Below are positions 5,052-39,691 of a stretch of 64,000 bases of DNA, one piece after another; position 1 is the stretch's first letter; every line of letters starts with the position of its first letter. The position numbers and the translations under genes are program-made. This stretch comes from Escherichia coli (GTDB lineage Bacteria > Pseudomonadota > Gammaproteobacteria > Enterobacterales > Enterobacteriaceae), in NCBI RefSeq assembly GCF_016903815.1, contig NZ_CP069973.1. The stretch is one strand, 5' to 3'. The notes below the pieces were generated by a model. That model ran no database searches. It worked only from the letters and a program-made list of their open reading frames with translations, and was not told where the DNA came from.

Positions 5052-5915
5052 TCACAAATACAGCGCCGGAAATATCAACCGGCTCACCCCGCGCACCTTT
5101 AACGCATCAGCCAACGGCTCAACGTCTTCCGGCGTGGCGCTCGCCCAGCTTTGGGCCTCGCCATACACGCCGTGGGCATGAAACGCGTTCAGGCGTACCG
5201 GAACATCGCCAAGTCCCTTGATAAACGCCGCCAGTTCTTCGATGTGTTGCAAATAATCCACCTGGCCAGGGATTACCAGCAAACGCAGTTCCGCCAGCTT
5301 GCCGCGCTCTGCCAGCAAATAGATGCTGCGCTTAATCTGCTGATTATCGCGTCCGGTTAACTGTTGATGACATTCGCTACCCCACGCTTTGAGATCGAGC
5401 ATCGCGCCGTCGCACACCGGGAGCAATTTTTCCCAGCCGGTTTCGCTCAACATACCGTTACTGTCCACCAGACAGGTGAGATGGCACAGTTGCGGATCAT
5501 TTTTGATAGCAGTAAACAGCGCCACCACAAACGGTAGCTGGGTCGTGGCTTCGCCGCCGCTTACCGTTATCCCTTCGATAAACAGCACTGCTTTGCGGAT
5601 ATGGCTAAGCACCTCATCCACGCTCATGGACTGCGCCATTGGCGTGGCATGTTGCGGACACATCTTCAGGCAGGTATCACATTGCTCGCAGACCACAGCG
5701 TTCCACACCACTTTGCCGTCAACAATCTGCAACGCCTGATGCGGACACTGTGGCACGCACTCCCCGCAATCATTGCAACGTCCCATCGTCCACGGATTGT
5801 GACAGTTTTTGCAGCGCAGATTGCAGCCCTGCAAAAACAGAGCCAGACGACTGCCTGGCCCGTCAACGCAGGAGAAGGGGATAATCTTACTGACTAAAGC
5901 GCATCTGCTGTTCAT
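5052..5915 (-). CDS. yjjW: glycyl-radical enzyme activating protein (radical SAM)
   Basis: 287-aa ORF; CxxxCxxC cluster ([24 protein letters not shown]) plus ferredoxin-like Cys motifs. Confidence 0.9.
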
Positions 5916-7437
5916 GGCTTATCACGCGCGGCTGGCGTTCCAGAATACGAGTGTTACGTGCGGCTTCTTCTCCCAGCCAGGTGGTGTTGGTACGTGAGCC
6001 TTCGGCACGATATTTTTCCAGATCCGACAAACGCACCATATAACCAGTAACGCGAACCAGGTCGTTACCGCTGATATTGGCGGTAAATTCACGCATTCCG
6101 GCTTTAAAGGCACCGAGGCAAAGCTGTACCAGCGCCTGCGGATTACGTTTGATGGTTTCGTCGAGCGTCAGAATGTCGCTGATGCCGGAATAATAATAAG
6201 CATGATGCGGGGCGACGGTTTGCAGATGGGTGATCGGATCTGGCTCATCACCATACGGCAAACGTGCGCCCGGCGTGGTGCCGATATCGGAACTTATCCC
6301 CGACTGTGCGTGTAACATGGCGCGTTTTTGCCAGCCATATTTCACGGGGGTATTGGCGACAAACTCCGCCAGTTGCGCGCTGATGCGATAACCCACTTCA
6401 TTTGCGGCGGCCTCTTTACCGTAGCGCGCGGCAATCCCCTCTTTTTCACACAGCAAGTTAACCGCTTCCGCCAGCCCATACATGCCAAACATTGGCACAA
6501 AACGTTCAGGGTTAATCAGCCCTTCTTTCACCAGGAAGCTATTCTCAAAGAAGTGTGATTGTTGATAGAGGAATTCACACCGCGCATCGATGATGGCGAT
6601 CTGCTGCTGGCAGTAGTGCGGTAGAGTGCGCGTAAAGAAGTCTTCCAGCGATTCGCTGCGCTCGGCAATGGCTTTCAGGTTAAGGCGTACCAGCGTGCTG
6701 CCACCACCCGCCAGCGGCAGTGAGTTGTAACAGCTCACAATCCCGTAGCCCCCTTTTGTGAAAATTTTATCATGCACCGGACCGTTGGCGATGTGCGGTT
6801 TGCTACATTCACAGATGTTCTTCGCCACTTCCAGCAGTAGGTCATCAGGGGTGATTTCAGGATCGTAGATAAAGGTCAGGTTCGGTGAAACCTGCTTCAA
6901 CTCTGCGTCTGCACGTAAGATCGCGCGGGTAATGGGCGAATCAGACGGGCCGATATTGGCGTGCATAAAGGCGTCTGGCAGGGTTCTGTCGAGGTAACGC
7001 CAGAAACGTTTTATTCGAATATCGATCTCGTCTTGTGTTAGAATTCTAACATACGGTTGCAACAACGCATCCAGTTGCCCCAGGTAGACCGGCATCGATG
7101 TGACCGACGGTACGTGGTGGTAAAGAATGGTCAGCAGAGAGAGTGCGTCATCAAGATCTTTCGCGCCTTCCAGCTCCAGCCATTCGGAACCGTTCGCCAG
7201 AAAACGGGCGTAATCGGGTAAGACATAGCGCGGTTTGTACGGCGCATGACCTTCAAACATATCGCAGATTACACCCTCATCCAGCGCGTGGCGGGCTTCG
7301 GCAGGAAGCTGCGGATAAGGCAGATTGTTTTCTGCTTCCAGCGCCAGAAAATGGCGCTTCTGCTCCGGGCTAAGCACCGGGCTGGTGACAATTTGCTGGC
7401 AACGTTGTTGCAGTGCATTTTCATGAGAAGTGGGCAT
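5887..7437 (-). CDS. yjjI: glycine-radical-enzyme-like protein of unknown function (DUF3029)
   Basis: 516-aa ORF matching remembered YjjI; overlaps yjjW start by 29 nt. Confidence 0.88.
6757..6772. promoter_or_regulatory. putative DeoR operator OE (TGTGAAAATTTTATCA)
   Basis: imperfect palindrome exactly 279 bp upstream of O1, the spacing I recall for the deo operators. Confidence 0.5.
7036..7051. promoter_or_regulatory. DeoR operator O1 (TGTTAGAATTCTAACA, perfect palindrome) at deoP1
   Basis: perfect 16-bp palindrome, 599 bp upstream of a second copy. Confidence 0.75.
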
Positions 7438-7634
7438 CTTCTTTTCCTTTTATGCCGAAGGTGATGCGCCATTGTAAGAAGTTTCGTGAAGTTCACTTTG
7501 ATCCTGATGCGTTTGCCACCACTGACGCATTCATTTGAAAGTGAATTATTTGAACCAGATCGCATTACAGTGATGCAAACTTGTAAGTAGATTTCCTTAA
7601 TTGTGATGTATATCGAAGTGTGTTGCGGAGTAGA

Positions 7635-7650
7635 TGTTAGAATACTAACA
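7635..7650. promoter_or_regulatory. DeoR operator O2 (TGTTAGAATACTAACA) at deoP2
   Basis: 16-bp near-palindrome about 45 bp upstream of the deoC start codon. Confidence 0.75.
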
Positions 7651-7694
7651 AACTCGCAAGGTGAATTTTATTGGCGACAAGCCAGGAGAATGAA

Positions 7695-8474
7695 ATGACT
7701 GATCTGAAAGCAAGCAGCCTGCGTGCACTGAAATTGATGGACCTGACCACCCTGAATGACGACGACACCGACGAGAAAGTGATCGCCCTGTGTCATCAGG
7801 CCAAAACTCCGGTCGGCAATACCGCCGCTATCTGTATCTATCCTCGCTTTATCCCAATTGCTCGCAAAACGCTGAAAGAGCAGGGTACCCCGGAAATCCG
7901 TATCGCTACGGTAACCAACTTCCCACACGGTAACGACGACATCGAAATCGCGCTGGCAGAAACCCGTGCGGCAATCGCCTACGGTGCTGATGAAGTTGAC
8001 GTTGTGTTCCCGTACCGCGCGCTGATGGCGGGTAACGAGCAGGTTGGTTTTGACCTGGTGAAAGCCTGTAAAGAGGCTTGCGCGGCAGCGAATGTACTGC
8101 TGAAAGTGATCATCGAAACCGGCGAACTAAAAGACGAAGCGCTGATCCGCAAAGCGTCTGAAATCTCTATCAAAGCGGGTGCTGACTTCATCAAAACCTC
8201 TACCGGTAAAGTGGCAGTGAACGCGACGCCGGAAAGCGCGCGCATCATGATGGAAGTGATCCGTGATATGGGCGTAGAAAAAACCGTTGGTTTCAAACCG
8301 GCGGGCGGCGTGCGTACTGCGGAAGATGCGCAGAAATATCTCGCCATCGCCGATGAACTGTTCGGCGCTGACTGGGCCGATGCGCGTCACTACCGCTTTG
8401 GCGCTTCCAGCCTGCTGGCAAGCCTGCTGAAGGCTCTGGGCCACGGCGACGGTAAGAGCGCCAGCAGCTACTAA
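7695..8474 (+). CDS. deoC: deoxyribose-phosphate aldolase
   Basis: 259 aa from ATG 7695 ([24 protein letters not shown]...). Confidence 0.95.
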
Positions 8475-37228: not shown

Positions 37229-39691
37229 ATGCGAGTGTTGAAGTTCGGCGGTACATCAGTGGCAAATGCAGAACGTTTTCTGCGTGTTGCCGATATTCTG
37301 GAAAGCAATGCCAGGCAGGGGCAGGTGGCCACCGTCCTCTCTGCCCCCGCCAAAATCACCAACCACCTGGTGGCGATGATTGAAAAAACCATTAGCGGCC
37401 AGGATGCTTTACCCAATATCAGCGATGCCGAACGTATTTTTGCCGAACTTTTGACGGGACTCGCCGCCGCCCAGCCGGGGTTCCCGCTGGCGCAATTGAA
37501 AACTTTCGTCGATCAGGAATTTGCCCAAATAAAACATGTCCTGCATGGCATTAGTTTGTTGGGGCAGTGCCCGGATAGCATCAACGCTGCGCTGATTTGC
37601 CGTGGCGAGAAAATGTCGATCGCCATTATGGCCGGCGTGTTAGAAGCGCGTGGTCACAACGTTACCGTTATCGATCCGGTCGAAAAACTACTGGCAGTGG
37701 GGCATTACCTCGAATCTACCGTCGATATTGCTGAGTCCACCCGCCGTATTGCGGCAAGTCGTATTCCGGCTGATCACATGGTGCTGATGGCAGGCTTCAC
37801 CGCCGGTAATGAAAAAGGCGAACTGGTGGTACTTGGACGCAACGGTTCCGACTACTCCGCGGCGGTGCTGGCTGCCTGTTTACGCGCCGATTGTTGCGAG
37901 ATTTGGACGGACGTTGACGGGGTCTATACCTGCGACCCGCGTCAGGTGCCCGATGCGAGGTTGTTGAAGTCGATGTCCTACCAGGAAGCGATGGAGCTTT
38001 CCTACTTCGGCGCTAAAGTTCTTCACCCCCGCACCATTACCCCCATCGCCCAGTTCCAGATCCCTTGCCTGATTAAAAATACCGGAAATCCTCAAGCACC
38101 AGGTACGCTCATTGGTGCCAGCCGTGATGAAGACGAATTACCGGTCAAGGGTATTTCCAATCTGAATAACATGGCAATGTTCAGCGTTTCTGGTCCAGGG
38201 ATGAAAGGAATGGTCGGCATGGCGGCGCGCGTCTTTGCAGCGATGTCACGCGCCCGTATTTCCGTGGTGCTGATTACGCAATCATCTTCCGAATACAGTA
38301 TCAGTTTCTGCGTTCCACAAAGCGACTGTGTGCGAGCTGAACGGGCAATGCAGGAAGAGTTCTACCTGGAACTGAAAGAAGGCTTACTGGAGCCGCTGGC
38401 GGTGACGGAACGGCTGGCCATTATCTCGGTGGTAGGTGATGGTATGCGCACCTTGCGTGGGATCTCGGCGAAATTCTTTGCCGCGCTGGCCCGCGCCAAT
38501 ATCAACATTGTCGCCATTGCTCAGGGATCTTCTGAACGCTCAATCTCTGTCGTGGTAAATAACGATGATGCGACCACTGGCGTGCGCGTTACTCATCAGA
38601 TGCTGTTCAATACCGATCAGGTTATCGAAGTGTTTGTGATTGGCGTCGGTGGCGTTGGCGGTGCGCTGCTGGAGCAACTGAAGCGTCAGCAAAGCTGGCT
38701 GAAGAATAAACATATCGACTTACGTGTCTGTGGTGTTGCCAACTCGAAGGCTCTGCTCACCAATGTACATGGCCTTAATCTGGAAAACTGGCAGGAAGAA
38801 CTGGCGCAAGCCAAAGAGCCGTTTAATCTCGGGCGCTTAATTCGCCTCGTGAAAGAATATCATCTGTTGAACCCGGTCATTGTTGACTGCACCTCCAGCC
38901 AGGCAGTGGCGGATCAATATGCCGACTTCCTGCGCGAAGGTTTCCACGTTGTTACGCCGAACAAAAAGGCTAACACCTCGTCGATGGATTACTACCATCT
39001 GTTGCGTCATGCGGCGGAAAAATCGCGGCGTAAATTCCTCTATGACACCAACGTTGGGGCTGGATTACCGGTTATTGAGAACCTGCAAAATCTGCTCAAT
39101 GCAGGTGATGAATTGATGAAGTTCTCCGGCATTCTTTCTGGTTCGCTTTCTTATATCTTCGGCAAGTTAGACGAAGGCATGAGTTTCTCCGAGGCGACCA
39201 CGCTGGCGCGGGAAATGGGTTATACCGAACCGGACCCGCGAGATGATCTTTCTGGTATGGATGTGGCGCGTAAACTATTGATTCTCGCTCGTGAAACGGG
39301 ACGTGAACTGGAGCTGGCGGATATTGAAATTGAACCTGTGCTGCCCGCAGAGTTTAACGCCGAGGGTGATGTTGCCGCTTTTATGGCGAATCTGTCACAG
39401 CTCGACGATCTCTTTGCCGCGCGCGTGGCGAAGGCCCGTGATGAAGGAAAAGTTTTGCGCTATGTTGGCAATATTGATGAAGATGGCGTCTGCCGCGTGA
39501 AGATTGCCGAAGTGGATGGTAATGATCCGCTGTTCAAAGTGAAAAATGGCGAAAACGCCCTGGCCTTCTATAGCCACTATTATCAGCCGCTGCCGTTGGT
39601 GCTGCGCGGATATGGTGCGGGCAATGACGTTACAGCTGCCGGTGTTTTTGCCGATCTGCTACGTACCCTCTCATGGAAGTTAGGAGTCTGA
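37229..39691 (+). CDS. thrA: bifunctional aspartokinase I / homoserine dehydrogenase I
   Basis: 820 aa from ATG 37229 ([20 protein letters not shown]...). Confidence 0.96.

Follow-up and report, generated by a model that had tools for sequence, protein, structure and literature searches.

Repressor operators can share their DNA with codons, as do the auxiliary lac operator O2, which lies inside lacZ (+401), and the gal operator OI, which lies inside galE. The DeoR operators O1, O2 and OE of the deo operon are a founding example of bacterial long-range repression via DNA looping; looping between them was reportedly described by Dandanell and Hammer in 1985 and by Valentin-Hansen and colleagues in 1986, and also by Dandanell and colleagues in 1987 and Amouyal and colleagues in 1989. 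These classical deo papers are older than the annotation of yjjI, the gene in which two of the three operators lie. The deo arrangement resembles lac O2 and gal OI in that a looping or auxiliary operator sits in a coding sequence, but in lac and gal the regulated operon carries the internal operator in its own first gene, whereas in deo two operators together with an entire promoter occupy another gene, one that is transcribed in the opposite direction and regulated separately (by FNR). A further likeness is to the convergent promoters pR and pL of coliphage 186, as the distal deo promoter (deoP1) and a putative yjjI promoter face each other about 410 bp apart; pR/pL is a transcriptional interference system, whereas for the deo/yjjI pair interference would be hypothetical and the yjjI transcription start is a prediction from conserved motifs.

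The locus considered here belongs to another Escherichia coli strain and lies in a window of 64 kb, the whole stretch of DNA that was analysed (contig NZ_CP069973.1). The gene order is yjjU, yjjV, yjjW (minus strand), yjjI (minus strand) and deoCABD (plus strand), the same layout as in K-12 MG1655. Since the locus is the K-12 deo regulatory region itself, its operator system is already known, and given the status of that system as a founding example its presence in an E. coli window is expected. The same three 16-mers are found in K-12 with identical sequence, the same spacing and the same position relative to deoC (OE at 4616385, O1 at 4616664-4616679 and O2 at 4617263 of the K-12 record); the apparatus is without difference but for one SNP in the deoP1 spacer, at 7020, where K-12 has C and this strain T. 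Of 5,426 complete E. coli genomes, 5,423 contain the region, and 2.7 kb of it is 100% identical to E. coli strain 7/2; the 60-bp megablast queries against the 5,426 genomes are too coarse to localise SNPs, for which the direct K-12 comparison was used. In the papers surveyed that mention yjjI or deoP1, no discussion of the overlap between operators and coding sequence was found, but the overlap is nonetheless readable from any annotated map. The features of the locus are as follows.

5052-5915, minus strand: yjjW, glycyl-radical activase; its start overlaps the 3' end of yjjI by 29 nt
5887-7437, minus strand: yjjI coding sequence, for a YjjI family glycyl radical enzyme of 516 aa, annotated alike by PGAP and in K-12
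6757-6772, no strand: DeoR operator OE, TGTGAAAATTTTATCA, in yjjI codons 222-227
6998-7035, plus strand: deoP1 upstream block (-35/spacer region), within yjjI codons 135-147
7036-7051, no strand: DeoR operator O1, TGTTAGAATTCTAACA, a perfect palindrome in yjjI codons 129-134
7461-7511, minus strand: putative FNR-dependent yjjI promoter, with a -10 TACAAT at 7468-7473 and the TTTGATCC/FNR half-site at 7497-7504
7549-7617, plus strand: deoP2 CRP-2/CytR/CRP-1 region, TTTGAACCAGATCGCA ... TGTGATGTATATCGAA, conserved blocks in a 14-genus alignment
7635-7650, no strand: DeoR operator O2, TGTTAGAATACTAACA, overlapping the putative deoP2 -10
7695-8474, plus strand: deoC coding sequence, the first gene of deoCABD

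A mechanical call of a TTG start at 7671 for deoC was set aside, the true start being 7695.

The initial annotation had recorded three DeoR palindromes, spaced by 279 and 599 bp, and had read them as the deo operators. Both points hold: the three 16-mers and their start-to-start distances (OE to O1 279 bp, O1 to O2 599 bp) are exact in the sequence, and palindrome, spacing and identity with K-12 all agree on what the sites are. The deoC ATG lies 44 nt downstream of O2. We take the perfect palindrome to be the published O1 and TGTGAAAATTTTATCA to be the published OE, an identity that secondary literature makes probable for these two sites. The deo sites are of the 16-bp palindrome type TGTTAGAA.TTCTAACA, and the DeoR palindrome has been published as TGTTAGAA-TACTAACA, which equals the O2 site at 7635 (PMC5326754). 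Two DeoR-repressed deo promoters have been described as lying 599 bp apart (PMC3334521), and elsewhere O1 and O2 are placed at tandem promoters some 600 bp from each other, OE being a further 300 bp or so upstream (PMC8053113); this layout is found here, with deoCABD downstream. When the 64-kb window was searched for the perfect palindrome with up to three mismatches, two matches were obtained (O1, with none, and O2, with one) against 0.16 expected from shuffled sequence. At up to four mismatches, five sites were obtained, among them O1, O2 and OE (which has four), against 2.5 expected, and the DeoR-like 16-mers at 39678 and 59190 were set aside as being at chance level. As a lone 16-mer OE is statistically unremarkable; it is accepted as real because of its position and its near-invariance in 74 species.

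We therefore read the sites as the natural DeoR operators of deoCABD, O1 and O2 lying over the tandem -10 elements and OE being auxiliary, with two of the three embedded in yjjI, and give this reading a probability of about 0.93. O1 and O2 would each cover one extended -10, that of deoP1 and that of deoP2 respectively, with OE in support. According to the literature, DeoR is multimeric and would bridge two or three operators at once, closing loops of 599 bp (O1-O2), 279 bp (OE-O1) or 878 bp (OE-O2), and such a loop would block both deoP1 and deoP2 until released by deoxyribose-5-phosphate.

Conservation of the sites was followed in 80 yjjI loci from species-representative genomes, 74 of which have deoC as the divergent neighbour (Escherichia, Salmonella, Citrobacter, Enterobacter, Lelliottia, Kosakonia, Kluyvera, Pluralibacter, Trabulsiella, Yokenella, Phytobacter, Atlantibacter, Hafnia and Edwardsiella). 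Across these 74 loci O1 is a perfect palindrome in 52 and has no more than two mismatches in any, OE is identical in 62, with variants that differ at central positions only, and O2 is found upstream of deoC in all 74; as the species are related these counts are not independent events, and it is ranking within the gene that controls for relatedness. O1, though inside a gene, is more conserved than the non-coding O2 (7 variants vs 15). Third-codon-position entropy was scanned over the 516 codons of yjjI in 511 sliding windows of six codons, and the lowest value of all falls on O1 (0.047 bits), followed by OE (0.112 bits), against a background with a median of 1.185 bits and a 5th percentile of 0.611. 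The third-lowest window (5899-5916) is in the 29-nt yjjI/yjjW overlap, and the fourth (7000-7017, 0.260 bits) is directly upstream of O1. Every operator codon has the lowest or tied-lowest entropy when compared with columns for the same amino acid. Per nucleotide, deoP1 and O1 form a single unbroken conserved block at about 6998-7053, third codon positions included. The block also contains codons that are rare in E. coli, namely AGA131 and CTA133 in O1 and CGA141 and ATA142 in the deoP1 part. The operators thus lie in a translated reading frame with excess conservation at synonymous sites, and the earlier proposal that sharing the same DNA constrains both functions is borne out, the operators being the most synonymously constrained spots of yjjI. 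The same bases have to specify YjjI residues 129-147 and 222-227 while preserving the recognition sites for DeoR and RNA polymerase, which leads to frozen synonymous sites, and this dual constraint accounts for the rare codons and for lineage-specific amino acids too.

The alternative that survives best, although we consider it very improbable, is that OE is not a DeoR site but a chance match with four mismatches or a CRP-like sequence, which would leave O1 and O2 as the sole functional operators. The unremarkable statistics of the 16-mer would fit this, as would its left half, TGTGA, which is the CRP core, the whole site reading TGTGA-N6-TATCA. However, the invariance of OE in most of the species extends to synonymous positions and places it second for constraint in the whole of yjjI, its distance from O1 fits the published value, and some Citrobacter O1 sites contain the variant half-site TGTGAAAA. 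A CRP ChIP-seq table for ETEC also has no peak at OE, the intragenic peak lying some 300 bp off (PMC4287617).

The dependence of the operators on the neighbouring deo operon bears on a second alternative. Four Proteus loci, in which there is no deoC within 4 kb, have 6-8 mismatches out of 16 to O1 at the aligned codons and encode YVG[ENS]LT and QDAVFG at the operator codons, and nothing resembling an operator was found in the yjjI of two more loci of Morganellaceae type, where the gene upstream encodes an OPT transporter or PagP. The L082 locus has a yjjI that is 67% identical and abuts deoC; it keeps O2, O1 (with two mismatches) and OE, at an O1-O2 distance of 613 bp. In a 21-sequence alignment of the family the two operators coincide with the segments of YjjI that vary most, one just past the LLxPYV motif and the other between SKPHIAN and YG[IV]VSC, and the residues R/K-I-L-T and D-K-I-F-T are limited to lineages in which yjjI abuts deoC. 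From this alignment, RILT and DKIFT are best regarded as derived states in variable segments of the family. It could be held that the conservation of O1 and OE is internal to yjjI, reflecting a rare-codon pause, an mRNA structure or a need for particular amino acids, with the palindromes incidental, given that rare codons such as AGA, CTA, ATA and CGA can mark programmed pauses and that O1 and OE stand in one reading frame, 93 codons apart. This is less probable still, as what is conserved matches DeoR palindromes exactly and at the spacing of the literature, the sites are lost exactly where yjjI is away from deoC, and the residues they encode sit where the protein varies most and are different in every outgroup. 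Nor was an Rfam or structural signal found, a search of 6400-7800 against Rfam having given no match. For the YjjI protein, no solved structure was detectable by sequence.

The overlap itself depends on where yjjI begins. O1 occupies nt 387-402 of the coding sequence, where (TA)T GTT AGA ATT CTA ACA is read as YVRILT, and OE occupies nt 666-681, where (CA)T GAT AAA ATT TTC ACA is read as HDKIFT, which agrees with their earlier placement in the 5' 400-680 nt of the gene. The predicted protein matches TIGR04040 over residues 11-504 (787.6 bits, cutoff 498.3; NCBIfam) and PF11230 over residues 22-504 (Pfam), and this full-length match, with the radical-SAM activase yjjW adjoining, places it in the YjjI family. 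Alignments with full-length relatives, some as distant as 33% identity, begin at about residue 7-23. The start codon, whose conservation the initial annotation had proposed as a check, is kept: ATG is codon 1 in all 59 species reached by alignment, and all of 14 genera have CAT at 7435-7437, with an RBS-like block upstream also conserved. Codons 11-128 are under normal purifying selection, their codon-position entropies (0.31/0.22/1.23 bits) being the same as in the remaining gene, and 25 of the 29 SNPs in yjjI relative to K-12 are at third codon positions. A start downstream of 7036, which would have removed the overlap, is contradicted by the HMM, start-codon and entropy evidence. The least credible alternative, that yjjI starts past O1 or that the 5' part of its reading frame is non-coding, can draw on the shorter YjjI entries in databases (e.g. 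the 402-aa P0112, from Met115), but it runs against the model coverage, the distant homologues, the conserved ATG with its RBS-like block and the codon pattern just described, and a Met115 start would still keep O1 within the coding sequence. This places OE, O1 and all of the deoP1 block in the N-terminal third of yjjI, a gene of opposite orientation.

The promoters of the region were identified from motifs and conservation. An extended -10, TGnTAGAAT, is found within both O1 (at 7036-7044) and O2, which fits operators that occlude promoters, these promoter elements being putative. The exact -35 within the deoP1 block is likewise a probable assignment. The block takes up 55 bp of yjjI and, at about 6998-7053, lies inside the coding sequence of 5887-7437, as had been suggested for deoP1 from the position of its operators. 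A sigma-70 consensus scan called neither deoP1 nor deoP2, and such a scan is uninformative where a promoter combines an extended -10 with a weak -35. The CRP sites of deoP2 are presumably centred at -40.5 and -93.5. The CytR/CRP architecture of deoP2 has been described (PMC3454398), and its CRP site TGTGATGTATATCGAA has been seen by ChIP-seq (PMC4287617). In the 14-genus alignment of the intergenic region the yjjI start codon, the TACAAT -10, TTTGATCC and the CRP/CytR/O2 blocks are conserved, the TACAAT and TTTGATCC blocks being invariant, and the TTTGATCC block is kept in L082 too. yjjI is reported to be a direct target of activation by FNR, with an FNR ChIP peak assigned to it at 4,615,181 (PMC3688515), which by coordinate conversion would lie near window position 7530.

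From its sequence, the putative promoter of yjjI seems to be located inside the loop, between O1 and O2, and to face deoP1 at a distance of about 410 bp. Judged by their motifs, transcription would begin near 7051 and run rightward at deoP1, and begin near 7461 and run leftward at the putative yjjI promoter. With the promoters facing each other, RNA made from deoP1 would be antisense to yjjI over its first ~400 nt, and transcription of yjjI would cross O1, deoP1 and OE. Three plus-strand reading frames antisense to yjjI in the deoP1 leader (7057-7221, 7143-7373 and 7246-7464) were rejected as genes because they are intact in merely 8-12 of 59-74 species.

Whether the overlap goes beyond passive constraint to a regulatory coupling of DeoR and deoP1 with yjjIW is a separate matter, and we regard such coupling as a tentative possibility, on balance doubtful. 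As the putative yjjIW promoter would lie inside the O1-O2 loop and face deoP1, DeoR looping, or antisense read-through from deoP1 over the first 400 nt, could modulate yjjI; the signal would then be deoxyribose-5-phosphate, acting on an orphan glycyl-radical enzyme. Conversely, anaerobic transcription of yjjI, on its way through O1 and OE, might displace the DeoR bound there, or it might occlude deoP1. If true, the coupling would tie anaerobiosis to deoxynucleoside catabolism and could give a handle on the function of YjjI.

The distance between O1 and O2 is 596-604 bp in most species, with other classes at about 568, 590, 612-613, 626 and 675 bp. Relative to the main class these are offset by -3.1, -1.0, +1.1, +2.4 and +7.05 helical turns respectively, Hafnia being at +2.4, and four of the five large indel classes are thus offset by about whole turns. 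This suggests that the phase between O1 and O2 is conserved, but the signal is statistically non-specific, a Rayleigh test on the distances favouring a period of 10.5-11 bp no more than one of 12 bp.

Lineages in which yjjWI is missing from this position give an indication of how the arrangement arose. In Pantoea and Rahnella, yjjU-yjjV is followed directly by deoCABD, without yjjWI, while in Providencia and Morganella a nupC-like gene separates yjjV and deoC. Pantoea has two DeoR-like palindromes 142 bp apart and Rahnella has one, all non-coding, and in Providencia and Morganella no DeoR-like palindrome was found at up to four mismatches. Comparison with these few outgroup loci suggests that an ancestor of the Enterobacteriaceae and Hafniaceae acquired yjjWI by insertion between yjjV and deoC. 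O1, OE and the distal promoter would then have arisen de novo from permissive yjjI codons, again as judged against few outgroups.

To the known operator system the present analysis adds a clean natural case in which a promoter and two operators have evolved in the coding sequence of a neighbouring gene, with measurable signatures: the top two islands of synonymous constraint, rare codons, derived residues in permissive loops and loss linked to adjacency. There are practical consequences. Deletion or codon-optimisation of yjjI will disturb deo regulation, and, along with the putative yjjI promoter, some 400 nt of antisense yjjI are included in the deoP1P2 expression cassette, which is in wide use. 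More generally, scans for synonymous constraint can find intragenic regulatory sites.

A separate observation concerns the leader of deoC in other lineages. A conserved leader of the form GCGGUGAGAnGGAyCUCAn-[hairpin]-AUCUUCAnGGAACCAAGUCCGCUCGCCAAC is present in Hafnia, Edwardsiella, L082, Rahnella, Providencia and Morganella, and is missing from the window and from all loci of the Enterobacteriaceae sensu stricto. A metagenome scan returned 40 genuine instances and 17 chance matches, and deoC lies 26-225 nt downstream in 38 of the 40. All 13 representatives that were folded share one common architecture. The central hairpin has a mean z of -2.27 over 28 distinct cores, with 21 of the 28 below -1.64; the sequence of its stem is lineage-specific and its stability is retained. 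The invariant 3' CUCGCCAAC can pair with GGUGAG in a closing helix, P1 (-10.4 kcal/mol), or alternatively with the invariant Shine-Dalgarno region GUUGGAGAG (-11.3 kcal/mol), which is found in 45 of 45 instances; P1 and this anti-SD helix are mutually exclusive. P1 is invariant and therefore shows no covariation, and MAFFT/RNAalifold recovered just the invariant closing helices, the register of the hairpin varying between lineages. Against Rfam 15 the leader gave no match at E <= 0.1. In a transcriptome of Yersinia enterocolitica the deoC 5'-UTR was listed as a new riboswitch-like candidate (PMC6478967), and it is plausible that the leader is an uncharacterised ON-switch and a candidate riboswitch.

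In enterotoxigenic E. coli (ETEC), CRP ChIP-seq placed one peak within yjjI, 544 bp from the CRP peak at deoP2 (PMC4287617), which would put it ~20 bp from O1, one of the two DeoR operators lying inside yjjI, if the deoP2 peak is centred on CRP-1. The motif proposed for this intragenic peak, CGTACCGTCGGTCACA (window 7099-7114, reverse complement), is a poor one, and the peak could reflect indirect cross-linking through the DeoR O1-O2 loop and not a genuine CRP site. Upstream of yjjI, a conserved TACAAT and a conserved FNR half-site together form a putative yjjI promoter, which matches an FNR ChIP peak that an earlier study attributed to yjjI (PMC3688515). The positions are as follows:

window ~7066-7114, intragenic CRP peak, inside yjjI and adjoining O1
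window 7461-7511, minus strand, putative yjjI promoter, TACAAT (-10) and TTTGATCC (FNR half-site)

This putative promoter and deoP1 are convergent, the former lying within the O1-O2 loop, and deoP1 transcripts would therefore be antisense to the yjjI 5′ region. The conserved spacer/-35 block of deoP1 carries a single SNP relative to K-12 at window 7020 (T in the window and C in K-12; TTCGAATATC and TTCGAACATC, respectively), because of which most E. coli genomes fall short of 100% identity across the 60-bp O1 block.

Pantoea ananatis and Rahnella lack yjjWI, and yjjV sits immediately ahead of deoC. DeoR-like palindromes occur at these loci, the two of Pantoea only 142 bp apart:

L089:2802-2959 (Pantoea ananatis, two) and L090:2561 (Rahnella, one), palindromes TGTTATAATAATAACA and TGTTATTATTATCACA, in non-coding DNA

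Such sites, placed in non-coding DNA where yjjWI is missing, suggest that the ancestral arrangement was compact and that yjjWI is an insertion.

Two other stretches of yjjI have low synonymous entropy. yjjI shares 29 nt with yjjW (window 5887-5915), and dual-coding 5899-5916 ranks third for synonymous constraint among yjjI windows (74 species), consistent with translational coupling. Codons 296-301 (FFENSF; window 6535-6552, plus strand GAAGCTATTCTCAAAGAA) have the fifth-lowest synonymous entropy, at 0.467 bits where the median is 1.185; no recognisable motif was found there, and the low value may be a mere effect of two-fold degenerate codons.

Hafnia, Edwardsiella, Rahnella, Providencia, Morganella and their relatives carry a conserved leader of ~70-95 nt ahead of deoC; this leader is absent from the window and from Enterobacteriaceae sensu stricto. 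It was located in the following comparison loci:

L072:3534-3771; L075:3525-3762; L082:49-286
L088:2766-3003; L090:2766-3003; L091:2766-3003
40 metagenome loci among L092-L147

Its junction sequences are invariant and its central hairpin sequence is swapped from lineage to lineage. The 3′ CUCGCCAAC could pair with either of two partners, GGUGAG (the closing helix) or the invariant SD GUUGGAGAG. The leader resembles a translational ON riboswitch; Rfam holds no family for it, and the Yersinia deoC 5′-UTR has been flagged only as a candidate (PMC6478967). In Proteus and Providencia-type loci, a CRP-like palindrome (e.g. TGTAAAAATTGTCACA) recurs just 3′ of yjjI:

L078-L081 ~5610; L083:5634; L085:5631, CRP-like palindrome, downstream of yjjI
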